The notes under the pieces: generated by a model
Database searches by the model: none
Seen by the model: the letters and a program-made list of their open reading frames with translations, nothing else
Told to the model about the DNA's origin: nothing
Shown: positions 620 to 63,870 of the stretch, in pieces
How the letters are laid out: every line of letters starts with the position of its first letter
Numbering within the stretch: position 1 is the stretch's first letter
Position numbers and translations under genes: made by a program
IMG/VR virus record: IMGVR_UViG_3300029704_000004
From: a virus
Length of the DNA: 64,000 bases
Direction: 5' to 3' (one strand)

Positions 620-645
620 CTAGCCGCCCCGTAAAAGGTATTGAA
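620..645 (-). repeat. GC-rich dispersed repeat, copy A (core on - strand)
   Basis: The + strand reads CTAGCCGCCCCGTAAAAGGTATTGAA, and its reverse complement contains TTTACGGGGCGG. The copy starts 11 nt after the stop at 607-609. Confidence 0.9.
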
Positions 646-724
646 CAGATAAAGCTTTAGTACCAATATAAGTTAATTTTATTAAATTAAACTTCAATAA
701 TAGTCTATCTTCGTTATTTATAGC

Positions 725-732
725 TATATTTG
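725..732 (+). promoter_or_regulatory. Bacteroidota-type -7 promoter box (TAnnTTTG)
   Basis: TATATTTG followed by CA lies about 125 nt upstream of ATG 858. It matches the published Bacteroides -7 consensus TAnnTTTG. The -33 element is not clear. Confidence 0.5.
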
Positions 733-1382: not shown

Positions 1383-1400
1383 GTTATGAATAAGCTATAT

Positions 1401-1426
1401 ACTCCTTTTACGGGGGGGGCTAGAGC
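1401..1426 (+). repeat. GC-rich dispersed repeat, copy B (+ orientation, G8 run)
   Basis: ACTCCTTTTACGGGGGGGGCTAGAGC. The copy lies 19 nt after stop 1380-1382 and 67 nt before ATG 1493. Confidence 0.9.
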
Positions 1427-1435
1427 GATAGCGGA

Positions 1436-1451
1436 GGGGACGCAAGTCCCC
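1436..1451 (+). other. GC-rich stem-loop with GNRA tetraloop
   Basis: GGGGAC-GCAA-GTCCCC is flanked by the direct repeat GCGATA (1425-1430 and 1455-1460). No T-run follows, so it is not a canonical terminator. Confidence 0.5.
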
Positions 1452-1492
1452 GAAGCGATACCGATTACATTTATAAAATTAATAATAATACA

Positions 1493-3829: not shown

Positions 3830-3832
3830 GAT

Positions 3833-4711: not shown

Positions 4712-4970
4712 TTTTAGTAATGAAGATAGTAAAGGTTTTGTAGTAGTTCTTGTTCTTACATTTGTTATTTGTTGCTCTATGGTTATTGGAAAATATTATC
4801 ATACTAAAAATAACAATATTATTGAACAAAATATTGAACTACAAAAACATAATGATAGTCTAAGAATTAAAGTTGATAATTTAGATAGTATTAAAAATGC
4901 AAAAGTTATTGAAGTTAAAGCTCTTGATAATGATAGTACTATTAAGTTGTTCTATCAACTCATTAAGTAA
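4704..4970 (+). CDS. N-terminal TM plus coiled-coil protein (i-spanin- or holin-like)
   Basis: GFVVVLVLTFVICCSMVIG is a hydrophobic helix and the remainder is heptad-like. The next ORF overlaps it in another frame. Confidence 0.45.
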   Translation: MDSFSNEDSKGFVVVLVLTFVICCSMVIGKYYHTKNNNIIEQNIELQKHNDSLRIKVDNLDSIKNAKVIEVKALDNDSTIKLFYQLIK

Positions 4971-5253
4971 AGTTTACATACCTTTTACGGGGGGGATAGA
5001 ACATGATAGTATTAAAGTTGCTATTGATGACCTTCGTAAAGCTAATACAAAATTAATAGAATTAAGTTATGAAAAAGATATTAATAAGAATCTTCGACAA
5101 ATTATTGTCAATGATAGTGTTCTTGCAGAACAAGCTAGACAAAGATATATATTATTGGATAGGTCATGTAAGAAAATAAAGAAGCAACGTAATATTGCTT
5201 ATTGTGGTACTGGTGTTGCTATTGTGTTACTAATTTTAAGTCTATTGAAATGA
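4897..5253 (+). CDS. lipoprotein-signal protein with C-terminal TM helix (spanin-like architecture)
   Basis: MQKLLKLKLLIMIVLLSC has a lipobox-like LLSC, and the C-terminus GTGVAIVLLILSLL is hydrophobic. It overlaps 4704-4970 by 74 nt, ends in an ATGA overlap with the terminase start, and contains repeat copy C. Confidence 0.4.
   Translation: MQKLLKLKLLIMIVLLSCSINSLSKVYIPFTGGIEHDSIKVAIDDLRKANTKLIELSYEKDINKNLRQIIVNDSVLAEQARQRYILLDRSCKKIKKQRNIAYCGTGVAIVLLILSLLK
4975..5000 (+). repeat. GC-rich dispersed repeat, copy C (+, G7)
   Basis: TACATACCTTTTACGGGGGGGATAGA. It starts 5 nt after the stop of ORF 4704-4970 and is read in frame as PFTGG in ORF 4897-5253. Confidence 0.9.
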
Positions 5254-10033: not shown

Positions 10034-10065
10034 GTTTTGTTTTATTATTTGTTGATTAATGTGTG

Positions 10066-10098
10066 AGAGTAGTGCTCGTGAGGGTACTACTCTTTTTT
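10066..10098 (+). terminator. rho-independent terminator
   Basis: Stem AGAGTAGT/ACTACTCT with a 12-nt loop, followed by T6. It lies 33 nt after the portal stop. Confidence 0.7.
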
Positions 10099-10180
10099 AT
10101 TATCTGTCTATAAAATATTTAATATTTCAAATTCGTCTGTAAGACGTTCAATCATATTTCGTGAATAACTTATCATCGAA

Positions 10181-10188
10181 TATATTTG
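10181..10188 (+). promoter_or_regulatory. possible -7 box abutting repeat copy D
   Basis: TATATTTG is followed by AG rather than the CA seen at the other boxes. It is contiguous with the AGCCGCCCCGTAAAAGG of copy D. Confidence 0.25.
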
Positions 10189-10214
10189 AGAGCCGCCCCG
10201 TAAAAGGAATTACG
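10188..10214 (-). repeat. GC-rich dispersed repeat, copy D (- orientation)
   Basis: The + strand reads GAGAGCCGCCCCGTAAAAGGAATTACG. Intergenic, downstream of the portal terminator. Confidence 0.9.
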
Positions 10215-10425: not shown

Positions 10426-10433
10426 TACTTTTG
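10426..10433 (+). promoter_or_regulatory. Bacteroidota-type -7 promoter box
   Basis: TACTTTTG followed by CA, 55 nt upstream of ATG 10488. Confidence 0.55.
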
Positions 10434-10487
10434 CAAACAAGTAACTGATGTTACTCTTTTTATTATTAATCATTAAATTATTATTTT

Positions 10488-11837
10488 ATGTTTGTATTTC
10501 GTAATACTCTTGGTTTTAAACCTCATACTCGTTTGATGGGTCCACTTGACGGAATTAATCTTGATTTTGGTGGTGGTGGAACTAATGCTCCAGACATCAA
10601 CGGAGGTGATAATAAAGGAGGCAATAAAGACGGTGATGGTACAGACCCTGAACCTCCTAGTAATAAAGACGGTGACGGAGACGGTAAAGACGGCGATGGA
10701 ACTGGTGATGGTGATGGGAAAGATAATCCTGATGATAAAGACAATAAAGGTAATGATACCACACCTTCTACGGGGGGGCTAGAGCCAGGTACTAATGTAG
10801 AGTTTGAAGGTCAAACTTATACAGTAGATGAAAATGGTAATCTCGTAGATAAAGATAATAAAGTTTTCAAAGAAGCTAAAGATGTAAAAGCTTGGATTGA
10901 TTCTCTTCAAGTAGAAGAACCTACTGATGAAATTAATCTTGCTGCTATTCAAAAGGCTCTTGATGTAGAACTTACTGATGAAGATGGTAAGCCTGCTGAA
11001 TTTGAAGATTCTATTGATGGTATCAAATCTTATGTAGATAAGGTTATTGAACTTAAAAACAATGAAGTAGCTCAAGCTGCAGTTAATAAAGTATTTACTG
11101 ATAATCCTATTCTCAAGCAATTTGTAGATTATCTTACTGTAAATAATGGAGACCCTCGTGGTTTTGGTGAACGTTCAGACCGTAGTTCTATTACAGTAGA
11201 TGAAAAGTCTGAGGAACAACAAATTGCTATTATTAAGACTGCTGCTAAAGAATTTGGTAATGCTAGTCTTAATGACAATTATATTAAGTATCTTAAAGAT
11301 TCAGGCGGTCTTTATGATGAAGCTAAACTTCAGTTAGCTAATCTTCAAGCTGCTGACAAACAACGTGACGAAGCTTACGCTAAACAAGCAGAAGCTGAAC
11401 GTCAAAGAGAAGAAGATGAAACTTTAGCTTATTGGAAAGATATTAAAGATGTTGTTACTAATCGTAAGATTGGTAATTATACATTACCTGAAACTCTTGT
11501 TCGCACAGTTAATGGTCAGAAAGTTACTGTTACTCCTAATGACTTTTATGACTATCTTTATCGTCAGACTAAAGATGCTGATGGTGTTATTGCAACAGCT
11601 TATCAAAGAGATTTGGCTGCTAAGTCTGCTGAACAAGAACGTGATGAAGAACTTCTTAGTGCTTGGTTGATGTATACAGGTGGAACTTATGAAGACCTAG
11701 TAAAAATGGCTATTAATGAGGAAAAAGTAAAAACCCTCAAATTAGTGAACAAACAAAGTAAAGGTCGTGGCACTGTACGAATTACTAAACCAGCAAGTGC
11801 TAATCATAAAGCTATTGATGATATTCAATTTAGCTAA
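10488..11837 (+). CDS. scaffold-like head assembly protein with Gly/Asp-rich N-terminus
   Basis: The gene sits between portal and capsid genes. It has a low-complexity GDGxDG N-terminal ~95 aa and a charged coiled coil (QAADKQRDEAYAKQAEAERQREEDE). The function is positional inference. Confidence 0.4.
   Translation: MFVFRNTLGFKPHTRLMGPLDGINLDFGGGGTNAPDINGGDNKGGNKDGDGTDPEPPSNKDGDGDGKDGDGTGDGDGKDNPDDKDNKGNDTTPSTGGLEPGTNVEFEGQTYTVDENGNLVDKDNKVFKEAKDVKAWIDSLQVEEPTDEINLAAIQKALDVELTDEDGKPAEFEDSIDGIKSYVDKVIELKNNEVAQAAVNKVFTDNPILKQFVDYLTVNNGDPRGFGERSDRSSITVDEKSEEQQIAIIKTAAKEFGNASLNDNYIKYLKDSGGLYDEAKLQLANLQAADKQRDEAYAKQAEAERQREEDETLAYWKDIKDVVTNRKIGNYTLPETLVRTVNGQKVTVTPNDFYDYLYRQTKDADGVIATAYQRDLAAKSAEQERDEELLSAWLMYTGGTYEDLVKMAINEEKVKTLKLVNKQSKGRGTVRITKPASANHKAIDDIQFS
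10761..10785 (+). repeat. GC-rich dispersed repeat, copy E (+, G7, one core mismatch)
   Basis: ACACCTTCTACGGGGGGGCTAGAGC, read in frame as STGGLE at the end of the low-complexity N-terminus. Confidence 0.8.
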
Positions 11838-16283: not shown

Positions 16284-16312
16284 CTACATTCCTTTTACGG
16301 GGGGTCTAGAGC
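16284..16312 (+). repeat. GC-rich dispersed repeat, copy F (+, G6) nested in a larger hairpin
   Basis: CTACATTCCTTTTACGGGGGGTCTAGAGC. The outer arms GGGAATG-AA-GCTCTA (16272-16286) pair with TAGAGC-AA-CATTCCC (16307-16321). It lies 25 nt upstream of ATG 16337. Confidence 0.9.
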
Positions 16313-17218: not shown

Positions 17219-17812
17219 ATGGAAGAAATTAAGGTAACCCGCCCCGTAAAAGAAGCAGTTGATAATGAATCTTCTATTACTGGACAATTTAATAAAGTTG
17301 TAGTTAAACAACTAGAAAGAGATAGTATTGAAGAAATTCATCCAGAAGTACTTTATCTTACTATTCCTTCAGAATGGACTTGTACATATCATCAACTTAT
17401 TAATTATATTGCTGATGTGGGTAAAGGTATTATTGATGATTGTAGTTTTGCTTGTAAAGGTGATGGTAAGAAATTGTTTAATTGTTGGGGATTATTTCAA
17501 AGTGCTTGTGCTGCTTATCAACAATTAGATTATACTAAAGCTAACTTTTATTATAATTATGTAAAGCAGCAACTTGAAGACTACTATAAAAATTTAGGTA
17601 AACCAATTTATAATGGAACTAATTATTATCCGATTACTCCTGATGGTAAGCTTAAAGCTCTTTGTAGTTGTTCAAATCAAAATGTAATATTTAAAGTTGA
17701 CATTGAAACTGGTAAACTTTATCAGAATTATCTAGATAATAAAGATAATGGTGAAGTATTTACTATTAATGATAATGGTCATTTAAATGTTGAATCTGAT
17801 AATAAAGTTTAG
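17219..17812 (+). CDS. Cys-rich hypothetical protein (197 aa)
   Basis: ATG 17219 is the only in-frame ATG, and codons 7-10 (RPVK) are encoded by repeat copy G. Confidence 0.55.
   Translation: MEEIKVTRPVKEAVDNESSITGQFNKVVVKQLERDSIEEIHPEVLYLTIPSEWTCTYHQLINYIADVGKGIIDDCSFACKGDGKKLFNCWGLFQSACAAYQQLDYTKANFYYNYVKQQLEDYYKNLGKPIYNGTNYYPITPDGKLKALCSCSNQNVIFKVDIETGKLYQNYLDNKDNGEVFTINDNGHLNVESDNKV
17236..17255 (-). repeat. GC-rich dispersed repeat, copy G (- orientation)
   Basis: The + strand reads AACCCGCCCCGTAAAAGAAG. It lies 30 nt after stop 17204-17206 and inside the first codons of ORF 17219. Confidence 0.85.
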
Positions 17813-17845
17813 TCGATTTCAAATTGGCAATTTTGTTCAATTACG

Positions 17846-17860
17846 CATACCTTTTCGGCA
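17846..17860 (+). repeat. decayed copy of the dispersed repeat
   Basis: CATACCTTTTCGGCA compared with the consensus CATACCTTTTACGGGGCGG: the left half is intact and the G-run is lost. It lies 34 nt after stop 17812. Confidence 0.4.
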
Positions 17861-17864
17861 CATC

Positions 17865-20900: not shown

Positions 20901-21281
20901 AGAAATTGTGTCTTTGAAAAAACTACTGACAGTGAAAGTGAATTATCTGGAGTTTGCTGGTATTCTCATAATACTACTGTAGATGGAAATATTCCTTCAT
21001 TAGATGATAAATCTAAAGTAATATTTATTGGATGTACATTTTTAAGTGATAAAAAGTATTGTATGAGATTACAAGACTGGAATGGAAGTACTACTGATTA
21101 TTGTGAGTGGACTTTCATAAATTGTACATTTATATGTACATCTGATAATACTGATGATGCTGTCTATATAGAATATAAGAACTACCCTGATGAACTTGGA
21201 GCAAAGGGGTTCAAGCATAAATTCTCATTATCAGAAAAGTCTTGTGGTAATAATGTTTCTTGGCTTAATTATAATAATTAG
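17991..21281 (+). CDS. tail fibre / receptor-binding protein, mosaic, with C-terminal beta-helix-like domain
   Basis: The coiled coil and NAENAQDAIDEL...KVMSQKAVRDAV are tail-fibre-type motifs. Three divergent ~100-aa internal repeats follow. The C-terminus has repeated NCxF/GCTF/NCTF turns typical of parallel beta-helix proteins. Confidence 0.7.
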   Translation: MKQFSKDLGNVSLVPKGKWSREQEYERLALVYNACDNLSYVAKTNVPSGVDIENREYWQPMNVTGYGDNNFINLTTENENGTITAFDSIEEAVATILPINRRVGATLSFYNLNSDRLDRQAEFELWQFNSTDLANWENKDYWNNIYYNWNVFTGWYISVDSLEKHVKIPNVGQYAYVGANLNDALLYQCRTNGTWTNTGIKVRNYISVVVSGNITIGENGNWFSDGEDTGIPATPAVDEQLDNIIIQLQQHTTEISNLKKSDANLQDQITSNDSDITNLTAKHKSLSKTVQGIAATGGASTATNVTYNNDASGLNAENAQDAIDELQSSKIGKTSILQESGEAKDKVMSQKAVRDAVSKTTKDSRFKETIEVIVPSGTSNANITIQKYTESGGKLYFTIDNSNFPPNISYVGTQIRDDDNLEITTFGNVTNHTLDSFESKYFNIGCYFASEVPSDVHIPIEVVYEQRYKTYDDAIDNKMGLCYVTMYGAHCSPIFNIDFNRKEVTTYNKEFILYDTNATLNDYHGLYIDLKAEEEKTIPFDIESYPDSKIPYWLIYDYTNKEFRVCNYAWMSNHKGKIVFYPVGYGAIQYVDVIDSFKINCDTSFKINGEVYYNGPKQVMSLVDSALKGKISGVVTIESGSKSANVTINQTVMAGYRLRFTIDKSNFPQEISYIGAQIRDDKSTEITTRGEDIFEIDSFNTTNINVAFYFKSQLSKSIDIPFTIDILTYTRQIIEDNVDELKFPFLSIKKSLTVSNGTNNHVDYIYHNFYSKGKIRITIDKSNFPLDISYNGTQIRNDKGTEITTQGANSFEFDSLDSSYLSIGCYFRSNVSKDIVIPYTIEVMLPSPYEEQTRQIIEDISLDGLIPAGISTKRFENFQDFNIYGYGSSVSILKDSSGNYDTPPIEIAGGGISNITVIEDGGFTDHSAYCVHSDNNNAKGKTLRVDNCHFISNSGSCWGVGTRNGYTMEFRNCVFEKTTDSESELSGVCWYSHNTTVDGNIPSLDDKSKVIFIGCTFLSDKKYCMRLQDWNGSTTDYCEWTFINCTFICTSDNTDDAVYIEYKNYPDELGAKGFKHKFSLSEKSCGNNVSWLNYNN
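19098..20568 (+). repeat. three divergent domain repeats inside the tail fibre gene
   Basis: Units at about 19098-19395, 19890-20199 and 20241-20568 share the pattern ...R/KLxFTIDxSNFPxxISYxGxQIRxDxxxEITTxG...IPxxI.... Units 2 and 3 both end with the exact 22-mer ACAAGACAGATAATTGAGGATA (20178-20199 and 20547-20568). Confidence 0.8.
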
Positions 21282-24491: not shown

Positions 24492-24495
24492 TTGA

Positions 24496-24520
24496 AAGCC
24501 GCCCCGTAAAGAGAATGTAG
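24496..24520 (-). repeat. GC-rich dispersed repeat, copy H (left arm of a doublet)
   Basis: The + strand reads AAGCCGCCCCGTAAAGAGAATGTAG and starts 5 nt after stop 24489-24491. Confidence 0.9.
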
Positions 24521-24530: not shown

Positions 24531-24554
24531 TTCAATACCTTTTACGGGGCGGTT
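24531..24554 (+). repeat. GC-rich dispersed repeat, copy I (right arm of a doublet)
   Basis: TTCAATACCTTTTACGGGGCGGTT. TTTACGGGGCGG (24541-24552) is the exact reverse complement of CCGCCCCGTAAA (24499-24510). Confidence 0.9.
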
Positions 24555-24569
24555 ATAATAACTAAAGTT

Positions 24570-29289: not shown

Positions 29290-29310
29290 GATGTAGTTAA
29301 TATACTTATT

Positions 29311-29336
29311 CTAGCCGCCCCGTAAAGGATATGTAG
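29311..29336 (-). repeat. GC-rich dispersed repeat, copy J (left arm of a doublet)
   Basis: The + strand reads CTAGCCGCCCCGTAAAGGATATGTAG and starts 22 nt after stop 29289. Confidence 0.9.
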
Positions 29337-29378: not shown

Positions 29379-29402
29379 TTACATACCTTTTACGGGGCGG
29401 CT
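29379..29402 (+). repeat. GC-rich dispersed repeat, copy K (right arm of a doublet)
   Basis: TTACATACCTTTTACGGGGCGGCT. TTTACGGGGCGGCT (29389-29402) is the exact reverse complement of AGCCGCCCCGTAAA (29313-29326). Pairing extends through GG/CC and TATGTA/TACATA. Confidence 0.9.
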
Positions 29403-29430
29403 TTAAACGTTTAATGATTTACATATTGAT

Positions 29431-37131: not shown

Positions 37132-40100
37132 ATGACAAAGAAGTGTAATAGATTAAGAGGTGAACGACCTAAAGCATTTTGGGGTGCTTTAGTTGGTGGT
37201 GCTATGAATTTAATTGGTAGTGCTATTAGTTCTAAATCTCAAGCTAGAGCTATCAGAAGACAAATTGAAGCTCAGAAAGAAGCTGCTCGAACTCAATTAG
37301 AGTTAGCTAATAATAGTAATCTTGCTAGTACGTTGAATAGTTATGTAACTGCTACAAGAAGTTATAATGATGAAGATGATTATAATTTAAAGTATCGTCT
37401 TGGTGGTAATAAACGTTTAGAAAGTAATAGAATTTATATTACTGATGGAGGCAATGCTACTAAGATTGGAAATGATACATACCTTTTACGGGGGGGTTCT
37501 CACGAGCAAACCAATGAGACTGGTCAAACAGGTATTGGTATCAATGTTGGTGGTAACGAAGTTGAAGCTGAGGGAGGTGAAGTTGCTCAGAAGAAGAATG
37601 GTGCTCTAAGAATCTTTAGTGCTCAACCTATTCTTGGTAATGGTATGAGTCCTGCTCAAGCTATTCTTAGAGGTTATAATAAAGATAAAGTATTTAATGC
37701 TCAACAAGCATTTAAGAGAAGAAATGGTCTTAAAGATGATGGAGGTAAAGCAAAATGGGGTATTGGATGGCTTGACAGTTTATTTGGAAACGATAATCCT
37801 AAAAAGAAAACTGTTCATTTTTATAAATCTCAAGCTACAGGTAAAGTATTTAAAACTAGACAAGAAGCTATAGCCGAAAATAATAAATATAAAACTAATT
37901 TAGGTTATAGAAGAACTATCAATAGAGAACGAGAATTTGAAGCTGCTAAAAACAAAAGCGGTAATGAACGAATACCTTATATTAAAGAAAAAGAAATTAA
38001 ATTAAGTAAGGCAGGTAAATTAACAGGAATAAAACTTACTACTAATCAATTAGATAGTATTGCTAAATATGCAAATAAAGTAGGACTTCCTATTAAAACT
38101 GCTTTAGGATTGGTTGGACAAGAAAGTGCTTTTGGAAACTATTTTGGTTATGCAAATAATGCTAAATTTCTAAATGAATATCATAAACAAGGAGAAATGA
38201 ATAGAGATATTTTTGGTATTCCTGCATATAATATAGTAAATTACGAAAGATTACTTCCTAATAAAATACCAACATTGGTAGATGATAATGCCATAAATGA
38301 TAAATACGCAAAAAGAGGTATAAATAAATTTGGATATTCTGCTGTAATCAATGGTGATGAATTAGATAAACTTAAAGTTCAACATGAAGCTTATCCAGGT
38401 CTTGCTAAAAAACGTGCAAAATTTTGGAAAGATATTAAAGTTCCAACTTTGGAATTGGCATTTAAAGCTTATAAAGACCATCCGAATTTATATAATGCTG
38501 GTAATCCTAATCAACAAAATTTAGTTAATAACAAAGCTAATGATGTTTGGGGAAGTCCAGAAATTCAAAAATGGTATAGAACATCTCCTTATGTAAAACA
38601 TCGTCTTGGTGGTCGTTGTAAACTTAGAAATGACGGTTTAACTTCTAAAGATAGAGGTTCTTCTAAACGTCTTTATCCTTCGGTATCATCTAAAGATTTT
38701 GCAGGTGGTGGTAGAAGTTATCCTATTCCAACTAAAGCTGATGCTGTTGATGCTTTAAGACTTGCTGGTCTTCATGGAAGAAGTGATGTTAGAAGTAAAG
38801 TATATAGTAAATATCCTAGTCTTCGTCCTAAAGCTAGAATTGGTGGCAGTTGGAAAGCTCCAGTTTATAATACTAATAAATATAGAGTTTCCAATCGTAT
38901 GAGAAGACAAATAGCAACTTGGGAAGGTTCTGATTTTGCAGGTCAAAATAGAAGATTCAAAGGTGATGCTATTGGTGCTAAAGAAAGAGAACTTAGACGA
39001 ATAATGGGAAGAACTTATAATTATCTTAATGATAATCAAAGAGATTCTCTTAATAGTATTTACTATAATAGTCGAGTTGATACTTTCAAAAATGCTTTTG
39101 GTAAATGGTTTAGAAATTTAAATAGTGCAGTAGATAGAGGTGATGAACGTGCGTTCAATAATAGTCTTGCTGGTATTAGACAAAGTATGACTGTTGGAGA
39201 AAATAGAAAAAGTATGAGTGGTTTAGCTAAACGTAGAGCTTGGGAAAGAAATTGGTTTGGCAATCCTATTCCAATGGATAGTAATGAAACTAAAGCTATT
39301 CTTAATCAACAAGCTGAAGCTAAAATGGTTCAACCTACAGATAATACTAGAGTTGTTATTCAGCCTGAGTATATTGAAATTCCTACTCCTGTCGGTCATG
39401 GTGTTGTTCCAGTAGATAATCCAGACCCTAATTTATTGCAAGGTAATATTAAAGATAATTTAATTAATATGGGAAATAAATTTAGATTAGGACAAAGATG
39501 TGGTGGAAGTACTAGAATGCGTAAAGCCTTAGGTGGTGAAAGCCGCCCCGTAAAAGGCATGAGACGTAAACTTGCTTGGGGTGATGTAACTTATCCTTAT
39601 CGTAGAAATAATAATTTTGATTATTGGGATATTATAGACCAAGAACAAAAAATTAATGATAAAGGTGGTATAAGTCCTTGGACAACATCTAATAAATACG
39701 ATGTTAAAGTTCCTTATGTAATTACTAAGAGTACTCCTACTATTCCTTATACAAGTCAAGTTAGTACTCCAACTTCTGGAGTTTCTGAAAATAAGACTAT
39801 TCCTACTTATACTGGTAATAAGTCGGGTATGATAATTCGTGATGCTGATTGGTATGGTCTTGGAGCTGATTTAGTTTCTAGTATTGGAGGAAGTATTCTT
39901 GGTTTGGGTGCTTATAAAAACTTAGATTTTGATTATAATCTTCCAAACTTTGTAGAGGAAAGTCCAGTTGCTCTTAATACTACTTATCATAATGAAGCTC
40001 AAAAGTCTAATGTTGAACGTAATCGTTTAAATAGTAGAAATAGTATTCTTAGAAATACTATGAGTGGTAGTACTGCTGTTGGTCGTATGCAAGGTGTTGA

Positions 40101-46300: not shown

Positions 46301-49300
46301 CTGCACTTAATGATGCTCTTGATGTTCTTAATCTTACTAAAGGAAAGAATTATCGTTTAGGAGAACAAATTCAAGGTTTCCTTAGTCTTCGTCAAGATAT
46401 ATTTGATAGTCAAGAAAGAGAAGAAAGTCATAATGTTAATAATCCAGATGATAGTAATAATGGTGCTGAACCAGAGAGTACAACTACTCCTCCCCCTAGC
46501 ACGCAAACGACCTCAAATCCTGCGTCACAAGCCACTCAACCTCAGCAGCCTATTAATCAATCGGCAAGCACCCCACAGTCGCCTATAGCGCAAGGAAACA
46601 CGCCTACAGGCAATTCGCAATCACAAAGTGCGCAGCCAACACTACGCAACGAAGTGGGTGAGCGGGTCACAGAATTTTTAAATAGTCATAGTTCTATAAA
46701 ACCAACTAATATAAAAGTAGATAAAAATGGTAATGTTTCTAGTGGTGAACTTACTATTGATAATAATGCTAGAACGGAAGATATATTTGCTTTTATGGGT
46801 AATGCAGATTTATTTGAAAATCCTGAACTCGCTAATATTCCTAGTGCTACTGTAGAAAGAAATCCAAGTTTTGAATATGATGATAATAGTAATCCTATTA
46901 TTATTCAAAAAGGAAAAATTGACGTACAATTAGCAACTGGTCAATCAAATAGTTCAATACCTTTTACGGGGGGGTCTTCTGGTTCTAATGCTAGTACATC
47001 TACACAAGATAATACTAGTACTAATCAACAAACTACTCAGCAACAAGCTCAACCAGCTACTCAACCTCAAGTTGTAGATAGAGCTGAACTTACTGCTAAT
47101 TTTATGGGAAAACTTAGAACTAGTGGTAAAGAAATTAAAGCAGGTAATTTAACTGCTGAAGAGTTTATTAAATCTCTTAAAGATGAAGGTATTGCTCTTG
47201 GAGCAAGTCAAGAAGATATTGACGGAGCTATAACCAGTGTAAAAGCTGTTATGAACAACCTTCTTGGAACTACTTTTGCTTCTAGTGTTGGTGAAGTTAT
47301 GCTTGCTAGTGCAGTAGAGGAATATAAACCAAGTTTATCTTTCGGAAATGAATATAAAGATGCTGCTAATAATATGCTTAAAAATTATGCTTTTGAAGTT
47401 AAACTCAGACAACATAACGGAAAGTATTATGGTAATCTTGAAGATTTACTCCGATATATAAACGAACATAGTCCTAGTAAGAATACTGCTGATTTCATTT
47501 ATAATAGTCTTAAAGAATATCTTAAAACTGAAGAAGCTAAAAAGCAATTTGTAATGCTTGATGCTGATTCAGTTGATGATGCTGAATTTATGACTAATGT
47601 TCGTAAGACTGCTGGTGAACGTAGAGCCGAAGCTATTAAAGCTGGTACTCTTAAACGAGTTAATATTCGTGAGCTTAGTGAAGTAGTTCCTCCTGATAGA
47701 ATTGATGCAAGTTTAGCAGAACTTGATAAAATTAAAGAAGGCGATAAACTTACTGTAAAGAAAGCAAACAAGCTTGCTACTAATACTGATGTTTTATTAG
47801 TTCAACATAATGGTACTACTGTTGGTTGGATGGGTATTCCTACTTTTGATGTATCAACAGGAAGATATATTCAAGTTAACGATTGTATCAAATATACTGT
47901 AGGTAGGTCTGCTGAATATGATGGTGCTGTTAAAGATTGGATTCTTTCTATAGCTGACCCAAAAGATGAAGATAGTAGAAAACTTAACGACCTTCTTTAT
48001 AAAATAGCATTTGATAAGAAATATGATGGTTCATTTGTTGAGAAGTTTAAGAATAATCCTAGAGTTCAGGAAGCTGTAAAGAATGATTTTATAGTTATCA
48101 ATAAAGATAAAGGTTTTACTTATGCTAAAGCTCTTGATGGTATGGTTAAATTATGGAGATATAATCCTAATGTATCTTCTTTTAATCCTATTCCTGAAAG
48201 TATTAAATTGTTCTTTGATAATCTTAGAACTAGTTATCAAACTAGTTTAGCTTTGATTAATAACAATCAAGAACTTACTGTTAGTAAAATAAGTAAAGGT
48301 GAACTTCTTAGACTTGCTCCGCATGGAACTCCTGGAGAAGCATTTAGATTTGCTCAACCTGCAAGTATTGCTATTAGTAGTAAAACTGATGCTAGAATAG
48401 CTTTAGCTAGAAATCTATCTCAAATTGAAGTTAGCGGTAAGCAAACTAATGATAATCTTGGTTTTAGAATGAACCAAACATTAATTGCTATCGATAATGG
48501 AAATGGTACTATAGATTATACTAATGCTTATCCTGTAAATTGGGGAGTTACTAACTATGAGAAAGATGGTAAACTTGTAAATATGCCACATAGTAAAGTT
48601 CTTGCTGATTTAACTAACGCTATTGAAGGGCAAATTATTGATAGACTTACTAATCTTCAGAAAGGTGATAGTTTAGCTAATTGGAATGAGTTTAGAAGTT
48701 TTCTTGATACTCTTCTTGATTATAACAATAATAGTACTCTATTTAAAACTAGTGGTGTTTTTCATCGTAACAATGGACTTACTTATATTAATGCTGGAAG
48801 TAAAGCTGTAGCACTTTATGCTTGTGATACTAAACGTACTGGTGCTCCTACACAACTTGTATTTATGGAACATGGTAAAAAAGTTAGTAGTTATAGCTTG
48901 TTAGATAATGGAGCTGAAGCTGGTAAAGCTCTTGTTCAATTCCTTAGAGAAAACGCTACTGTAAACTTTGCTCACGAACTTCTTAGTAGTGATAATAATA
49001 CTTCTATTCCTTTAAAAGGTTTTGTAAGTAGAAATGCTGACGGAAAACTTGTGATTAATATACCTGAGTATAATGGTAAAAATGGTTTTAATCGTGTTGA
49101 AGAATCATATAATGATTTTATGATTAAGAATGATTTACTTAGAGTAGATTTAGCTCAAGTTGATGGAAGTAACTATTCAAGATTTTCATCTAATATGAAA
49201 GCTAATAGCGTACTTGAATTTACTGTAGGTGATGAGGTGAAACAAGAAGAAGAAAAGCCACTAGAACCCCCCCGTAAAGAGAATGTATCCACCAATACCA

Positions 49301-50421: not shown

Positions 50422-53400
50422 ATGGCTAATAATTGTAGTTTAAAATTTAATGAAACTAAGGTTTACACCAACCTTAAAGCTGAAGTTGGAAACGATGATG
50501 TTTTATTTAACAGCTTAATGAGTGCAGTAATTGATGGTTCTAGACCATCTGGTTTTAACAAGGAATTTGAAACCTATTATGCTAATAATTATGGTTCTAT
50601 TCCTAATACAAATGATGAAAGTAAAGAAGTTGCTACTGCTATTCAAAATTTTTATAAGAATAGAAATTTTAATGTAAATGAGCATACAACTGATTCTGCT
50701 TTCATTTCTGATGTTAAGTCTAAAGGTTATACTAGTACTGCTGCTAAAACTTGTGGTATTAGAACTACTGGTAATTTGATGTTAGCATTCTATCATAACG
50801 ATTTAATTAAAGGTCGTCTTGAAGAACATGCTGAAGATAGAAAAGATAATCTCGCAAATAGAGTTATAAATCGTATGTTGGGAGCTGTAGCAACAAATAT
50901 TCTTGAAGCTAGAAAAGTAGAAGCTACAAAAGAAGAAATTGCTAAAGTTCGTAAACAACTTATGAATACTAAGAGTAATGATTTTGTTAAGCTTGAGGAT
51001 GAAGTTTCTAAAACTACTCCTCAACTTAGAAATCAATTTGCTACTCTTAAAGATATGCTTTCTGATAAAGTTAAATATTTTACTCAAGTTATTCAAACTG
51101 ATGATAGACTTGGCGAAATTCGTTTTAAGAAAGATGATGATTTAAGTCAGCAAGAAGCAGATTGGAGTGAAAGTTTCGATATAGAAGATGATGATGATTT
51201 AAATCTTAACAATGCTGCTGATAATGCAAGTAACAACGAAAAAGATACTACTACTGCTCGTTGGGAAGATAATGGAACTAAATCTGACTTTATGAAAGAT
51301 TTTAGTTTTGCTGTTCGTAGTTATCTTTCAACTATTCCTAAACTTAGTAGTACAGAAGTAAGTGCTGACGGTAAATATCAATATGATAAAAGTAATCCTC
51401 TTGGAATGGTAGATTATATGGATTTTAAAGTCGTAAACTCTGCAATTAGAGGAGATATTGAAACTACTAATATTGATGCTTTTTTAAAGAAACTTGAAGA
51501 TATTGCAAAATCTAATAAAGAATATGCTGGTCTTGCTTATTTAGCTAATGACCTTAAAAAGAAACCAGATTTTGCTTATAAATTATTTCAAGTTTATAGA
51601 AGAAGAACTATAAGAAAACAGCAAGTTCGTATTGATGATAATTCTGTTTCTCCTACTAGAAGTAATAATCGTGCAGATAAACTTGAAACTTTAAGAATTA
51701 ATTATCTTAATGATATTAAGTCAACTGCTCTTAATATCATGATTGAAGATACTAATGATATTCTTGGAGCAATTAAAACTAAAATAGATGATTATAAGAC
51801 ACTTCAAAAAACTAAAGGATTTGATTTAAATAAACAAGCATTAAGTGCTGATATTATCAATGCTATTGCTAGTCGTTTAAAGCAATATTATCCTTCTCTT
51901 GATAAAGCTGCTATTGAAAGATTCGCTAGACTTAATGGAAAAGTTGACGGTAAAACTCCAAATATTGCTAATAATCTTACTCAACTTTATGGTTATCTTG
52001 AGAATACTGCAAAGTATGCTAACGAAACTCTTAATAATAAGCGAAATCTTGATAATAGATTTAAAGAAGCTAACAAGATTAAAGATAAGAAAGCTAAGAA
52101 AGAAGCTCTAGATAGTGTTCGTGAAGCTTATAAACAAGGCTATCTTTCTACTAATACAAAAGCTTATGCTCTTGAATTAGCTAAATCTTTAGCTCCATAT
52201 TCTGTAGTTAATATTGATTCTAATTCTACTAATGCTCTTGGTAATCAGTCTGCTGACCAAATTAATGACAGTATGATTACTAATTTCCTTAATGCAGTTA
52301 AAGCAACTTTAACTGAACAGCAAAAAGATGGAAGCAAAGTTTCTACTGAACTTATTAATTATGGAAAGTATAAGTTCCAAGGAGTACAATACAATCTTAG
52401 TGGTATTCTTATGGAACATCGTGATGAGAATGGTGCTGTAATTAATTATGGTCTTTTCTACAAAGATAAAGACGGTAATATTCAAATCACTAATTATGCT
52501 AGAGATATGGTTAATATCTCTTTGTTCGATGGTGCAGGAAATCCTAATACTAAAGATAATGTTCTTTATTCAGGTATGTCTAAAGGAGATTATGTATATA
52601 CAGGATTTGCTCAATACTTTAATACAGAGCAAAATCCTAAGATGCTTATGGGTGATTACTTTATGCGTATTCCTTCTGATGCTCCAAAGAACTTTGTAGT
52701 TCATGCTCCTAGATATAAAGTTGATGGCTTATTCTCTAAGATGCACGCTATTAAAAATGCTAAAGGTGAAGTTATAGCTAAAGAAGTTAGTGTTGATGAT
52801 ATTAACGAAAATCATCCAATAGTACAACAGTTTAGAAATATATTCAAACAGGAACTGTTGGATATGGTAAACTTTATCAACATTGTATTTGAAGTTAAAG
52901 AAAATACAGAAACTCTTGAAGATGGTACAGTTGTTGACCAAAGAGGAAGAATTGTATTTAATAATGACAATACTCCAATGTTTAAAAAAGGTTGGGGATT
53001 AGATGCTGAATCTGCTCGTAGAGTATTTGCTAATTATCATATTGGTAAAGGACATAAACATTTTATTGAAAAGAAAGGTGATGGTTGGGCATTTAATGGA
53101 CTTCTTTTTAAAGATGATAGATTTGTTCTTACAGATTATAAAACTGGTACAACTACAAAGTATGGTGACGATTTATTAAAATACTTGTTTCCTTCTCTTT
53201 ACGGGGGGGCTAGAGATGGCTTTATTCCTTTCACTACTAACGCTAATGGTGAAGTAGAACTTAACCTTACAGCAGACCAAGAAGCTATGATTACTAGAAT
53301 GGTTAAAGGTTTTGTAACTGACTATTCTAATAATGCTATTACTCGTATGAGCGAATATAAAGACCTTGACATTAATAATCTTATTAATGAAAAGAATAGT

Positions 53401-56400: not shown

Positions 56401-59400
56401 ACTTTTGCAGTATATAAAACTCTTGCTGATATTGGTAGTAATTATGATACTGCTGTAGGTTTTATTATGCAACCTGCTATTACAAAAATTGTAAATGCTT
56501 ATAATGCTAATAAATCTATTTATTCAGATAAACATAATAAACCAATAGAAGAAGCTATTAGGTCATTAGGCAAAGAGATTCTTAATACTTATCATATTAA
56601 TACTGATAAAATGAATCTTGGTGAAATAGTTGCTAGAGTTAATGGATTACTTGGTACTAAGTATAGTTTAGATAAACATAATGATATTATTTTATCGCCT
56701 GATGAGTTAGCAAAGAGATTGCTTAATGATAAAAACCGCCCCGTAAAAGTAAGTATATATCAACATGATTGGGGTGTTCTTTTTGCTTATAATGATTTAG
56801 CTAAACTTTCTGATAAAATTGGTTCTACTGCAAGGGTTTGTAATCCTGATAGATTTGGTGCTAAACAAAGTATTTTCGCTACTCGTAAAGTATTTAATGA
56901 TATTGCAGATTTAATTGAAGATGAAAATCCAGCTTTAGTTGTTGGAACTTCTTCTATTGTTAATAGTATCTATGCAGGTTATGACCCTACTAAAGGTTTA
57001 AGAAGCTATATTACTAGTAATGCTAAAAGTGCATATCCTAGTCTTAATGCTTTCTTAAAATATGCTAGTGCTCCTTCTATTCTTGTAAATAGAATGTTGT
57101 TTGATACAGAACAAGATAATTTTAGAATAGCTAATAGAGCTATTGAAGTTATAAACGGTAGTAATAATGTTACTGAGAAAGATTATAAAGGTTTTACTCA
57201 GTATATTCTTAATGCTGCTTATAAACAAACAGATGCTGTTGTAAACAACTATACTTATGATGTAGAGAAGAAACAAACTATAGTAAATAAAGAATTTGAT
57301 GAAACGGATGAAGCTCTCAGAATTATGGGTTATGGTTGTACTCCTGATTTTACTTTTAATGTTAAAGATGTAACTAATCCTACACAAGAAGAAGTAAATG
57401 CTTGGAGTAAACTTAGTCCTGCTCAAAAAATTAGTTGGCTTAAATCTAATAGTGTTGATGCTGGTATATTCAATTATATAAATACTAATTTATTTAATGA
57501 ATATGAAATGAATAGAGATGGTCAAAGTCGTCAAACTATTCGTTTTAACGAAGATGCCGTTGATAATGAAACTGCTTATAATCTTTTTGATACTGCATTT
57601 AGTTCAGATAATCCATTAGTTAAACTTGCTGCTATGGATATGGTTAAGTATGCTTTTGTCGCAGAAGGTTTTAAAATAGGTAGAGGTGCTATTAATAAAT
57701 GTATTAAAAATACTGCTCTTCGTGATGAAAACACTTTTGTTCAATTTAATGGTGCTAGAACTAGTATTATTGCTCAAATTAAAGCTCAAGTAGATAATGC
57801 AGTTTCTAGAACTGATTTAGTTGAACAATATCTTAGAAGTGACCCAGGAGTTAGTAATGTTCCTCATAAATTTATGAATAAAAAATATAGTTCTATGTTC
57901 GAAACTGTAACTAGAGGAATGTACGAATTTAGTTTGGACGATAAAGATAATGCTATCGAATTTGGATTTGCTAGAGAAAGTAATGCAGAGTTCGTTCCAA
58001 TACAATTTAATAATTATATTTATATTACTAAAAAAGAAGGTAACGAAAGCGTTACTAGACTATATAAAATTGTTTCTCCTGACCTTGGTTCTGGTATAGG
58101 TTTTGCTTATCCATTAAATGGTTTGGAAGCTGGTGAAGATAGAGAAGTTAGTATTAATAATGCTAATAATAGTGTTCCTCTTCCAAGTTATTATGAAGCA
58201 GTTATTGATAACTTGATGAACAGTGAAGTTGCTGATTATACATTAGATGAATTAAATGAATTGTATAAGAAGCATGTTGCTACAACAAAAGTCAATAAAG
58301 TCAAAGCTGTTACACATTTTGATATAATGTCAGATGCTAATAATGATAATGGTGGAGCTAAAGATGCTATTAATAAGATTATTAAAACTTTCAACAATTA
58401 TGAAGGTAATAGAATCTTTATTCAAAATATGTATCTTTATGGTAAAACTAAATATGATTCATTTACTCCTCCTATTCATGTTGAAGGTGAAACTATTTCT
58501 AATGGTGGTGAACCTATTAGTATTAATGGAAACTTCTTATTTAGACGTGCTACTAAAGTAAGTATTGAAAGTCATAATATTCGTACAGGAGAACATATTG
58601 AGGAAAAACCTCAACTTGTTGAAATAGTTAGGGAAACTCCTATGGCTAGTTCTCGTGAAGAGGTAACTCTTGGTTCTGCAAGTTCTAAACTTGAACAAAG
58701 TCTTAGAACTACAACTGATTCTTTTGAAAAGAATATAGTAAAAGAACTTAATCGTAGAAGTGGTCTTGGAGATATAGAAGCTGGAAAACTTATGCGTCAA
58801 CTTCGTGGAGAAGGATTTGAACAAAGTACTAAAGGCTATAAAGAGTTTAAAGATAGCGTATTCTATAGTGGTTATGCTTATCTTAAACATAAAGTTAATA
58901 GTACTCTTGGAAAGTTTAGTCAATTCTACAGAGATGAAAATGGTAATTACTTTGCTATCAATAGTCCTGAAGTAATCAATGTTATTAAGAATAATCCTGC
59001 TTTACAAAGACAGTTCCTTGAAACACTTGCTGATGCTAATGCTATTGTTGATAAATTTGGAATTATTAATCAGATTAAAGCTGATGAAATTGAGAATCCT
59101 ACTTTGAAATTCTACATTGATGAAATGCAGAAGATGATTAAGGAACTCAGTAATAGTTCTATTATTGATGATGCAGAAGTTAAGTTTGGACTTGATTATC
59201 TTCAGAAACTTAGTAATGACCCTAATATTCAAAATGGTCTTATTAGTATATACGATGGTTTCCATTCTAGTGGTTGGCTTGATGCTTGGTTTGGTGATTT
59301 ACAAGAACAAGGTAACAGTCTTGTTCAAGTAGTTACTAGAAAAGTAATGGCTGATATTCGTGCTAAAGAAAGTCAAGCAAAAGATTTTGCTGTAGCTTTT

Positions 59401-62400
59401 GGAAAACATTTTGAAGACATTAAAGCTAGAGCTGCTAAAGTTGGTGTTTCAGTTGACATCAATAAGATATTTGATAAGAACGGAAATATAGTTCGTAATT
59501 ATACAGATAAATTTGTTGAAGATATTAAAGAACTTAAACGTAATGTAGCTAAAGCTAGAGTTAATGTTCAAGAGAATCCAATGGAATATATTCAAGCTAA
59601 ACATAAACTTGATAAGTTCCTTCTTGACCACGTTAATCGTGAATATGTTGATAGTTATTATCAGAAGCTTTATGATGAAGATGAATTTATTATTAATAAT
59701 CATCCTCAAATTTATTCTGAGTATGTAAAACTTCGAGAAGCTATTAGACAGATTAATAGTCGTAGAATTGATGGCGTTTTAAGTAAAGAGTTTGAAGATA
59801 AACTTGTCGAACTCAGAACTAAGATTAATGATTTAACTAGTCAATTTATTGGTAATGAGTATAAGCCAGCTTACGAATATGGTTTTCCTGGTACTGAACA
59901 AGCTCCTGATGGTAGCATTATTGTAACTAATCAAGAAGTTTATGATAATGCTCGTAAACAGTCTCTTAATGATGCCGTTCAATTAGACCAATATCTTAGA
60001 AGAATTAAAGATATTAAGGAAGAATATACTGCTAAAGAGGAGAAAGAGGGTTTCCATGATATGCTTGATAAAATGCTTAATATTATTGATAATGCTGAAG
60101 TTAGAGATTCTAACGGTAAAGTCACTACTCCAGCTAGTCAGCTTGACACTAATAAAGAGTATAAGAAAGCTAAAGAATGGATTGCTAATAATGCTCATTG
60201 GTCAGTAGATGATGTTCTTAAAGTTAGAATTGAAGATGCTTATAAAAAACTTGGTATTACTAATTTCAAAGCTTCTAAAGCTAGAGCATTTATTAAAGAT
60301 AAACTAGCTAAAGGTGAACAGATTTATGATGAGTTTGGTAATATTGATGCTAGTAAGTTTACTAATACAGAGATTGCTGCAATTAAAGAAGACGTAGAAC
60401 GTAATTATGGTACAACTAATACCTCTTTATTCTCTGATAGAAATCTTATAAATTCAGCTGAACCAACTAATGAAGCTGCTCCTAGTGAGTTCTTTAAAAT
60501 GCTTAATAGTGGCGGTATGACTAATCCTGAGTATCAAGAGATTATCACTAAGATTAATAATATTACTCGTAAATATTATAATAGTGCTGCTAAAATAGTT
60601 GAAACTTCTAAGATGAGTATCGAAGATTTGAAATCTCTTGGAGACCTTTACGATGAATTAGATAAAACTAAGAAACATAAAGGAAAAGGCAGTTACGATG
60701 CTTATCAAGCATATAGTAAATATGCTAAAGAAAATGTAAACGAACAAGCTTATTATTCTGAAGAAGATGAAGCTAAGAAGCGAACTGAACCAGAGTTCTA
60801 TACTTTATGGAAGCGAGTTAATGCTAGATATGAAGTTCTTAGAGATAAGAAAGGTAAAATAGTTATTGATGAAACAACTGGTAAAGCTGTTTATGATTTA
60901 ACTAAAGCACCAACACCTAATCATTGGCTTTATACTACTATTGCTCCTAATGATGCTTATTGGGAAGATTTAAACAAACGTGACCCTAAAGAAGCAGCCA
61001 GACAAAAGAAAGAAGTTGAGGATAAAACTAAAGCTCAAGAGTTCCTTAGTAATACTCTTGAAACTATTAATACTCCTCAATATTATAAAGCTAAAAATGC
61101 TGCTCTTGCAAAAGGTATCGCTTATTATAAAGAATGGTATAATAACAATCATGTTTACAATCCATTTACTCATGCTTACGAAGCTCTTCCTATTTGGAAT
61201 AGAACAAGAGTTATTCCTAGTATAGATAATGGTGAGTATTCTCCTAATTGGACTCAGACTACTCTTACTCCTAAAGCTCATTATAAGAATCCAAATTATA
61301 TTGAAGGCTATACAGATAATGAAAATTATAAAACTGTTGAAACTGATGATAAAAATGGAACTACTCATGTTCCTGGTTATGATAATAATTTAGGACTTAA
61401 TGAGTACGAGCAAGAAGCTAAACAATATATTCAAGATACTCTCATGAGTTTTGCTAAAACTGAAACTGCAAAGAGAGCTATTGCTAGTGGAATGGCTCCT
61501 CATAGAGCTAAGAAAGCAGAACATGACGCTAAATGGGCTGCAAAGCAAGCTAAAGAGTTTATTGGATTTAGTGATATGCTTCCTAGCGGTAAAGATAGTT
61601 GGTATGAGAAGATTGATTACTCTGAAGATAGAACTATCGATATGCCTATGCTAATGACTCAACTTAAAAATAAGGAGAGTGTTGACTTGGATAATATTCG
61701 TAGTACTAAACCGAAGAGAGAAACTTATGCTAGTGATGAAGCTTATGAAAAAGATTTAGAAGCTTATCAAAAACGTATTGATGAAGCAATTAAGAAAAAC
61801 GAAGAAATACATCAAAAACTTCTTGATAGAGATTATATTGGTGCTATTCAAGATTTCATTAGTGCTGCCGGACATTATAATGCTATTCAAGACAATAAAC
61901 AATTATTGTTCTATACACATAGAATGTTAGGTAAGATGAAAGCTTATGATACTAATCTTGGTTGGAATAACTTACGTAAAGATAGTCAAACTAGTACAAG
62001 TGATGAAACTTCTTATATTGAGAAAGTTGATACTCGTCTTCAAGAACAATTTGATAACTGGGTTCGTAGATTAGTTTATGACCAATATAAAATTCCTCAG
62101 AATAAGTTAACTAGAACTGCTAGTATGCTTCAAAGTTTTACTAGTGCTAAATTTATGATGTTAAACATTACGGGTGGTATTGGTAACATAACTGTTGGTG
62201 AATCTGCTATTGCTGGAGAATATATAGCTAAAGAGTACTTCACTCCTACAGGTTGGTTAAAAGGAAAGAACATGTGGAGACATGCTATTCCAAGCTTTAT
62301 TAGAGGTATGGCTAACGAAGATAGTACAACACTTGCTGATGCTCTTGTTAAGTTTATGAATATTGTTGACTTTGATGAAGTTAATAATAGACCTACAGTA

Positions 62401-63831: not shown

Positions 63832-63843
63832 ACATTAAATGGT

Positions 63844-63870
63844 TATAGCCGCCCCGTAAAAGGAATGTAT
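63844..63870 (-). repeat. GC-rich dispersed repeat, copy R (-)
   Basis: The + strand reads TATAGCCGCCCCGTAAAAGGAATGTAT and starts 13 nt after the stop of the 4469-aa ORF. Confidence 0.9.

Follow-up and report, generated by a model that had tools for sequence, protein, structure and literature searches.

We describe a motif of 25 nucleotides (nt) that occurs 18 times, nine times on each strand, in a 64,000-nt stretch of viral DNA (IMG/VR virus record IMGVR_UViG_3300029704_000004; the whole stretch is called the window below), and that recurs in lineage-specific versions in other crAss-like phages of the family Intestiviridae, including the prototypical crAssphage (p-crAssphage, Carjivirus communis). 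The motif keeps its positions and orientations between lineages while its sequence changes in concert, it is spaced evenly along each strand, and it has a direction. Our overall proposal, which we hold tentatively as plausible rather than probable, is that the Intestiviridae carry an undescribed genome-wide punctuation, in which evenly spaced and interleaved polar 25-nt start signals on each strand would be read at 17-31 sites by a co-evolving phage enzyme. The original prediction for this DNA had recognized the repeat and listed only candidate roles for it; its reach into prototypical crAssphage with lineage variants, the positional conservation, the even per-strand spacing and the polarity were not seen there. 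We confirm the finding, which has a wider reach and more structure than that prediction had suggested.

An asymmetric motif on both strands

The nearest relative of the window is crAssphage cr8_1 (NC_055877.1; Crassvirales; Intestiviridae; Obtuvirinae; Fohxhuevirus), which matches it in reverse complement with 98% identity in blocks. The + strand carries all long open reading frames (ORFs) of the window, and the gene content comprises terminase, portal, capsid, tail and giant virion-protein (RNA polymerase, RNAP) genes. Two giant ORFs, 43333-50349 (2338 aa) and 50422-63831 (4469 aa), have counterparts in p-crAssphage and in the phage crAss002 that are annotated as RNAP-associated and RNAP catalytic proteins, and both contain embedded motif copies in the two orientations, approximately 3 kb apart.

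Counting both strands, the window has exactly 17 occurrences of the 9-mer core of the motif, TTTACGGGG, whereas dinucleotide-preserving shuffles average 0.03 and never exceed 1; the eighteenth copy has the core TCTACGGGG at 10767. Our recount agreed with the original prediction on the 18 copies, on nine per orientation, on every coordinate and orientation that it listed, and on a 9-mer exact in all copies except this one. Pooling the 18 window copies with 10 from the remainder of the closest genome yielded an information profile that extends from -7 to +17 relative to the core and reads C-A-T-W-C-C-T-T-T-T-A-C-G-G-G-G-S-G-G-C-T-W-K-A-R. The unit is therefore asymmetric and 25 nt long (CATWCCTTTTACGGGGSGGCTWKAR), with both flanks conserved, as had been proposed. 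When a weight matrix derived from all 18 was scanned over the window, it retrieved exactly these copies at 25-42 bits; the rest of the window scored at most 12 bits, and 20 mononucleotide shuffles gave 0-1 matches above 12 bits. The empty range between 12 and 25 bits indicates that there is no cloud of decaying copies. A sequence at 17845..17861 on the + strand (GCATACCTTTTCGGCAC), which had been reported as a decayed copy at 17846, does resemble the motif and is a plausible remnant, but it scores below 12 bits and shares a resemblance only.

No terminal inverted repeats and no flanking or target duplications were found in the information profile. Single copies folded no better than shuffles (z -0.75 to +1.05), in agreement with the earlier statement that they cannot fold on their own. 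A chance origin or an assembly artefact can be dismissed, given the excess over shuffles and the recurrence of the sites in NC_055877.1, an independent record, and in numerous contigs of other IMG/VR samples. The motif is likewise neither an intrinsic terminator nor a host-type promoter: single copies are unfolded, terminator-like hairpins are located elsewhere, and TAnnTTTGCA elements coexist separately with the motif in the window, which upholds the distinction drawn before. A known RNA family or a tRNA-like element was rejected as well, as the window gave no Rfam match at the gathering threshold and no tRNA.

Sites kept in place while the motif changes in concert

The full cr8_1 genome contains 26 exact cores, 13 on each strand, with the replication genes included. 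Word-enrichment analysis revealed a variant of the core in each of three further genomes, namely CACATYTCTTCTACGGGGGAGCTA with 17 copies in cr271_1 (Hacihdavirus), ACTCCTYTAYGGGGGAA with 29 copies in the cultured phage crAss002 (Churivirinae), and CCATCCTCYACGGGGRGTMTA with 31 copies in p-crAssphage. The lineage-specific variants of the motif read TTCTACGGGGGAGCT, CTTTAYGGGGGAA and CCTCYACGGGGRGT.

We then compared the sites through protein alignments of four genes in the four genomes: the SNF2/DnaB-type helicase, the primase, the small ORF before the large terminase gene (TerL) and the gene after portal. For the helicase, the primase and the pre-TerL ORF, the core falls in one alignment column and one orientation in cr8_1, cr271_1, crAss002 and p-crAssphage. 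In the gene after portal, the column is common to cr271_1, crAss002 and p-crAssphage; the cr8_1 copy is decayed there (TTPSTE), and the window retains TCTACGGGG. The shared columns lie in poorly conserved protein segments, and the primase column reads FYGG, LYGG, LRGN and LYGG, with the frame shifted once. The capsid proteins of these subfamilies are approximately 63% identical, and the shared columns imply that the sites are older than the split of these subfamilies. The relatives thus display conservation in orthologous columns of four Intestiviridae lineages, not random presence or absence, and the motif has changed in concert across lineages with position and orientation kept. Conserved sites together with concerted sequence change point to a cis-element that co-evolves with a phage-encoded reader, and they are incompatible with a miniature inverted-repeat transposable element (MITE) or a repetitive extragenic palindromic (REP) element.

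The motif is restricted to phages. A search of 50,697 phage records with a 32-nt consensus returned cr8_1 as the sole match, and a 17-mer gave 57 single hits in 596 Gb, a set of one genome each for 185,579 species of bacteria and archaea, where approximately 140 are calculated for uniform composition. At the length of this 17-mer, such chance-level single hits in bacterial genomes speak against a host genomic repeat, Chi or uptake sequence. In the Steigviridae, no ACGGGG was present in the 100 kb scanned of the 102.7-kb crAss001 genome (MH675552.1), and the phi14:2 genome contained no comparable word. Polymerase type does not explain the distribution of the motif, since phi14:2 has PolB yet is without it; the matches listed for crAss001 PolA include none of the identified Intestiviridae genomes. 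The most enriched word of crAss001 is CTTCTGGAG, or CTTCYTGAG, and a broader pattern matches 43 times, on either strand and both sense and antisense to the genes; the word could be an analogous, shorter signal.

Across the ends of the cr8_1 record, which are arbitrary, three copies (92657+, 44+ and 113-) lie within approximately 140 bp and include the only face-to-face close pair that we saw. Among relatives, the G run at site 44 is 6 to 9 nt long.

Copies between and within genes

Half of the copies in the window (9 of 18) are intergenic, although intergenic DNA makes up 5.5% of it (binomial P = 1.5e-7). The other nine lie within ORFs and use every reading frame and either orientation, which rules out a peptide motif. 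For these in-ORF copies, the comparison set consisted of IMG/VR relatives of approximately 70% nucleotide identity. The + strand copy at 53191..53215 (core at 53198), in the 4469-aa ORF, reads SLYGGAR where relatives have SLYNGSK, and as there is no indel the copy was made in place. At 49261..49285 (- strand, core at 49270), in the 2338-aa ORF, distant relatives keep the site in another reading frame (SRPVKGV versus EPPRKEN in the window). Within ORF 37132-40680, the - strand copy at 39537..39561 (core at 39546; SRPVKGM) is retained where the surrounding protein is only approximately 40% identical, and the + strand copy at 37478..37502 (core at 37485; TYLLRGGS) preserves CTT-TTA-CGG in the approximately 70% relatives, the rare codon CGG included. 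The - strand copy at 56730..56754 (core at 56739; NRPVKVS), also in the 4469-aa ORF, equals a 4-aa indel (RPVK; 12 nt) relative to distant relatives. The remaining copies of this kind are found on the + strand at 46956..46980 in the 2338-aa ORF (IPFTGGS), at 4977..5001 within the small ORF 4897-5253 directly upstream of the large terminase gene (IPFTGG) and at 10760..10784, approximately 280 nt into ORF 10488-11837 (TPSTGG; the copy with core TCTACGGGG), and on the - strand at 17233..17257 at the start of ORF 17219-17812 (TRPVKE), where the flanks are the weakest of the set (25.1 bits). The DNA of the sites explains why the odd peptide segments PFTGG, RPVK and YGG turn up in proteins that are otherwise unrelated.

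In relatives with 80-99% identity, divergence is 0-4% in the core and the 3' half and higher in the flanks. Collectively, these observations establish that the motif is a DNA-level signal under selection. In the same relatives, the 40 nt 5' of the core (the pyrimidine/CAT side) show 9-11% divergence, compared with approximately 3% on the 3' side and in distant flanks. The 5' side is the more divergent one at 15 of 18 sites, with a depth of 2-7 relatives per site and two close pairs that share a spacer.

The original prediction had included a REP/REPIN- or MITE-like selfish element among the candidate roles. A miniature selfish element moving through an AT-rich genome, be it a MITE, a REP/REPIN or a GC cluster, would fit the GC-rich composition of the motif in AT-rich DNA and its dispersal in both orientations, and one in-ORF copy does coincide with a 12-nt indel. 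We nevertheless consider this explanation extremely improbable, and the earlier suggestion is refuted by the orthologous columns, the creation of copies in place, the lack of terminal repeats or duplications and the lack of above-chance bacterial matches. Across four lineages the copies share alignment column and orientation, and all of them have changed in concert; one was created without an indel, and another has kept its place with a different reading frame. Terminal inverted repeats, target duplications and an intermediate decayed population are all lacking, and the even spacing described below is not expected from transposition. The cr8_1 annotation also offers no credible transposase: the label 'transposase' is attached only to an ORF of 56 aa, alongside a putative HNH endonuclease of 142 aa.

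Even spacing on each strand and a polar element

The copies are split 9+/9- in the window, 13+/13- in cr8_1, 15/13 in crAss002 and 13/18 in p-crAssphage. Within each strand the spacing is even, at approximately one copy every 6-7 kb. The coefficient of variation (CV) of the gaps per strand was 0.44/0.41 in cr8_1, 0.52/0.45 in crAss002 and 0.43/0.31 in p-crAssphage, compared with approximately 0.9 for random placement (P <0.0001 to 0.008 for each strand of these three genomes). In cr271_1, the + strand had a CV of 0.43 (P = 0.003), and the sparser - strand was not significant. Orientations tend to alternate along the genome (P 0.005-0.02) because two even series interleave, and copies are embedded in both orientations in the giant ORFs because the series are even and no intergenic space is available there.

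Where two copies lie less than 150 bp apart, the pair is back-to-back in 8 of 9 cases in the four genomes, with the pyrimidine/CAT ends inward and the G runs outward. Moreover, an AGCGN-repeat module, often with a GNA- or GNRA-loop mini-hairpin, is located 3' (on the G-run side) of 15 of 103 copies in the four genomes and 5' of none, against a background frequency of approximately 1%. The back-to-back pairs and the one-sided module demonstrate that the motif is a polar element. By contrast with this specific module, a general hairpin 3' of the motif was not detected, as the folding of 45-nt windows did not differ between the two sides of 94 copies (Wilcoxon P = 0.995).

The module takes the form of tandem AGCGN pentamers, often around a mini-hairpin with a GAA, GTA, GAAA or GCAA loop (e.g. 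GCGAAGC). GCGAAGC is a very stable DNA mini-hairpin, and AGCGG is the Chi sequence of Bacillus subtilis. Modules were located at 6028, 28080, 28179, 44956, 58730, 93670 and 95871 in p-crAssphage and at 4216, 47846, 64782, 86215 and 89654 in crAss002, some of them in coding sequence. In the window, the intergenic + strand copy at 1400..1424 (29.1 bits; 25 nt past the stop of ORF 858-1382 and 78 nt before ORF 1493) is followed on its 3' side by an accessory GC-rich module at 1424..1458 (+ strand), composed of AGCGAT-AGCGGA, the hairpin GGGGAC-GCAA-GTCCCC (1436-1451) and GAAGCGA.

The window contains two back-to-back pairs. In the first, the left copy at 24493..24517 (- strand) lies a few nt past a small-ORF stop and the right copy at 24534..24558 (+ strand) lies 21 nt before ORF 24570; the pair folds as a long hairpin (-15.5 kcal/mol, z -5.8). 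In the second, the left copy at 29309..29333 (- strand) is approximately 22 nt past a small-ORF stop and the right copy at 29382..29406 (+ strand, 41.9 bits) is 34 nt before ORF 29431; this pair folds at -22.4 kcal/mol (z -5.8) and has an orthologous pair at 31907/31987 in cr271_1. Such close pairs, with stems of 13-16 bp at z -5.8, are what would be expected if the motif acted in RNA, with G-form and C-form copies in one long transcript pairing into processing or stability hairpins; in one relative, both members of a pair have even changed from C to G together, so that complementarity is kept. However, most copies lie kilobases from their nearest partner, single copies are unfolded, and isolated sense and antisense copies differ at the central base, which would break the pairing. 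Conservation also reaches beyond what a stem requires, and there are no Rfam matches. We judge an action in RNA to be very unlikely, and an RNA processing or stability signal as a general function, which the original prediction had listed, is unlikely because the copies are equally sense and antisense.

Single intergenic copies, both sense and antisense, tend to lie approximately 20 nt past the upstream stop codon, and this similar distance in the two orientations means that orientation does not cleanly divide them into promoters and terminators. Orientation does leave a trace in one base of the motif: the S position of cr8_1 is G in sense and C in antisense copies (P = 0.002), and the Y position of crAss002 is C in sense and T in antisense copies (11:4 vs 3:11). 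On one reading, this orientation-dependent base may reflect selection against perfect RNA complementarity of sense and antisense copies in one long transcript.

Putative start sites for synthesis

The concerted change at conserved sites leads us to infer that a phage-encoded protein reads the motif. The original prediction had listed a site recognized by a phage protein or by the phage RNAP, and a nick site; these candidate roles stay viable and form the class that we favour. Within it, we suggest that the copies may be start sites primed by the phage DnaG-family primase or primosome, a reading that we think possible though open to serious doubt; the choice of priming rather than transcription or nicking is speculative. 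We place priming slightly ahead of promoters for the phage RNAP, with nick sites as the next rival.

In the mechanism that we envisage, the motifs would be cis-acting, strand-specific signals belonging to the phage, and the specificity of the reader would drift together with all of the sites, which would account for the separate version of the motif that each lineage carries at shared genomic places. One copy per approximately 6-7 kb would be maintained on each strand, making use of intergenic DNA where it is present and otherwise, as in the giant virion genes, being written into coding sequence. The signal would run from the CAT/pyrimidine side to the G run, a template 5'-CCCCGTA-3' would give a G-rich primer pppACGGGG, both strands would be primed at regular intervals, and back-to-back pairs would represent small bidirectional starts. 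The DnaG-type primases of T7 (GTC) and T4 (GTT/GCT) initiate across from a T that adjoins a cryptic base; the motif core fits this DnaG initiation logic, and the variable Y of p-crAssphage stands at the would-be cryptic base. In addition, the copies serve both strands equally and evenly, and the primases of crAss-like phages are of the DnaG family (PMC7886860).

Several points weigh against priming. The motif is an unfolded 25-mer, neither a site of 3-5 nt nor a folded region of 60-100 nt. To our knowledge, 25 conserved bases far exceed the need of any known primase; the primase sites that we know of are 3-5 nt long and very frequent, and none is a conserved 25-mer found every 6-7 kb. Fragments of 6-7 kb would be long for Okazaki pieces. 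The two Steigviridae phages also encode a primase, annotated as bacterial-type in crAss001, yet they are without the motif. The cr8_1 primase has no informative Pfam or PDB match. As for the identity of the reader in general, a search among this primase and the neighbouring replication proteins returned nothing specific in Pfam, PHROGs or PDB. When ten window proteins, including neighbours of the motif pairs, were compared with PHROGs, one matched a family of unknown function and nine had no match. Further points lean towards transcription. Copies with the extended GC-rich module are sense in 10 of 13 cases, several of them upstream of genes, and resemble a promoter with a leader; p-crAssphage has a promoter-like outward-facing pair at the junction of two divergent gene blocks; and the difference in the degenerate base between sense and antisense copies of cr8_1 and crAss002, given above, indicates that the direction of transcription matters somehow.

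These last points bring up the possibility that the motif is the promoter of the giant, fast-evolving crAss RNAP that the window encodes, following the logic of the T7 group, with antisense copies driving antisense or priming transcripts. The asymmetric unit of approximately 25 nt with a G run would suit a promoter, as would its concerted change between lineages at conserved positions, its intergenic enrichment, the sense copies 21-78 nt before start codons, and the back-to-back pairs together with the outward-facing pair at the p-crAssphage divergent junction. The GC-rich hairpin module is found only downstream, mostly at sense copies, like a 5' leader, and the RNAPs of crAss-like phages evolve unusually fast (PMC7886860). 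Set against this, approximately half of the copies are antisense to all surrounding genes, even inside 13-kb ORFs (in the window, cr8_1, cr271_1, crAss002 and p-crAssphage), the antisense series is spaced as evenly as the sense series, and many copies lie deep within ORFs. No copy is present at the divergent junctions of cr8_1, cr271_1 and crAss002, and host-type TAnnTTTG promoters are separately present. For phi14:2, the virion RNAP transcribes early genes only and no promoter motif was found (bioRxiv 10.1101/2020.03.07.982082), and its genome, as noted, lacks a comparable word. On balance, we regard the promoter reading as rather doubtful.

A phage nickase might instead recognize the motif and introduce site-specific single-strand interruptions in virion or replicating DNA on both strands. 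In the phage tf, the phiKMV-like and the T5-like phages, consensus nick sites are positionally kept and differ between relatives (PMC3517423), which is the same pattern as here; the phages studied here encode HNH endonucleases, and local divergence is in excess on one side of the motif. Nicking is unlikely, however, in that the described cases are all confined to one strand (PMC3517423) and the copies here are split about equally between interleaved strands. Opposite-strand pairs 39-71 bp apart would weaken the duplex, and orthology of the HNH genes from one lineage to another is not obvious.

Finally, the motif could bind an architectural or self-marking factor, either an IHF/HU-like protein of the virion that arranges the packaged DNA or an enzyme that translocates along DNA and for which a tag of the Chi or uptake type would mark the DNA of the phage. 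The occurrence on both strands, the even spacing, the presence in ORFs in all frames and the inverted pairs between genes resemble uptake sequences and Chi, and IHF-like virion genes adjoin one conserved pair. A tag for a host enzyme would be expected to be common to phages of the same host and abundant in the hosts, but the motif varies by lineage and the full motif is absent from bacteria. As for an architectural role, crAss001 and phi14:2 encode IHF-like proteins yet lack the motif, and the polarity of the motif is not needed for such a role. We consider this option distinctly unlikely.

Returning to start signals, if our proposal is true, replication or both-strand transcription would run in units of approximately 6-7 kb from fixed, sequence-defined points. 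We know of no phage reported to have such a per-strand punctuation by start signals.

Remaining copies and neighbouring features of the window

The other intergenic copies of the window stand alone. The - strand copy at 618..642 (38.0 bits; G-rich form on the minus strand) lies approximately 18 nt past the stop of ORF 289-609, the - strand copy at 10187..10211 lies 163 nt past the portal gene, and the + strand copy at 16287..16311 lies 35 nt before ORF 16337. The - strand copy at 63843..63867 (42.3 bits) follows the stop of the 4469-aa ORF by 21 nt, and cr271_1 has a motif copy 7 nt past the stop of its orthologous giant ORF.

A terminator-like hairpin at 10065-10099, GAGAGTAGT...ACTACTCT followed by TTTTT, is located approximately 30 nt past the portal stop and is distinct from the copy at 10187-10211. 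Bacteroidetes-type TAnnTTTGCA promoter elements were seen at 29113-29122, before the small ORF at 29144, and at 10426-10435, before ORF 10488. A sigma-70 scan of the window gave 59 matches against 53 expected.

The window and cr8_1 differ in a mosaic fashion at 1-602, 18968-24122 and 25764-28144, and homology with cr8_1 begins at 603. The blocks around the 1096-aa ORF and ORFs 25124-28149, which are replaced or strongly diverged relative to cr8_1, are probably receptor-binding genes. The motif sites were rejected as mosaic breakpoints: a single breakpoint lies 24 nt from copy 627, and the other five block ends are 148-3085 nt off.

Relation to known systems

We found no published description of the motif when searching with the motif sequences and for promoters, repeats and motifs of crAss-like phages, in a literature coverage that leaves out most subscription-journal papers; the original crAssphage paper and a large comparative study (PMC7886860) contain no description of it. 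Likewise, no description was found of replication starts, virion RNAP recognition or structural DNA marks in gut crAss-like phages, which are described as the most abundant human gut viruses (PMC7886860). The motif offers a sequence-defined handle on one such question, with 17-31 copies per genome, positions conserved across subfamilies and a lineage-specific sequence. Its presence in the cultured crAss002 and in prototypical crAssphage makes it directly testable. The motif variant could furthermore serve as a compact lineage marker, and 25-mers repeated on both strands may cause assembly breaks.

Among short repeats, REP/REPIN elements, MITEs and mitochondrial GC clusters are likewise GC-rich and dispersed in both orientations; the motif differs from them in having no palindrome, terminal repeats, mobility signature or credible transposase, and in occupying orthologous positions across subfamilies. 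Uptake sequences (USS/DUS) and Chi share more of its layout, being over-represented on both strands, evenly spread, present in ORFs in all frames and found as inverted intergenic pairs. They belong to cellular genomes and cellular readers, however, whereas bacterial genomes lack the motif, and its form changes from one phage lineage to another. DnaG-type primase sites and single-strand initiation signals (T7 GTC, T4 GTT/GCT, the G4 origin) resemble the motif in being strand-specific, polar and needed on both strands, and the even per-strand spacing of the motif (P <= 0.008) is what sites of the primase type would call for.

The promoters of the T7 group (T7, T3, SP6, K11) are asymmetric units of approximately 23 bp with an initiating G run, number approximately 15-20 per genome, sometimes lie in upstream coding sequence, and co-vary with polymerase specificity between related phages. 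The motif matches them as an asymmetric unit of approximately 20-25 bp that co-varies between related phages. T7-group promoters all point with the genes, whereas half of the motif copies are antisense, and the RNAP of crAss-like phages is a two-barrel enzyme unrelated to the single-subunit RNAP of the T7 group.

Nick sites in tf, phiKMV-like and T5-like phages form a dispersed, phage-specific consensus with approximately 4-14 sites per genome at similar positions in relatives (PMC3517423). The consensus is TACTGTGAC in tf and TACTATGAC in LUZ24, and the authors infer co-evolution with the nickase (PMC3517423). The likeness to nick sites of the T5-like, phiKMV-like and LUZ24-like/tf phages lies in a dispersed, positionally kept consensus that varies between relatives; those sites are 9-20 nt long and on one strand, in contrast to the crAss motif, which is 25 nt long and is interleaved and even on both strands. 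In summary, the nearest known kinds are the nick-site consensus and the T7-group promoters, and the both-strand interleaved layout and the 25-nt length set the motif apart from them.

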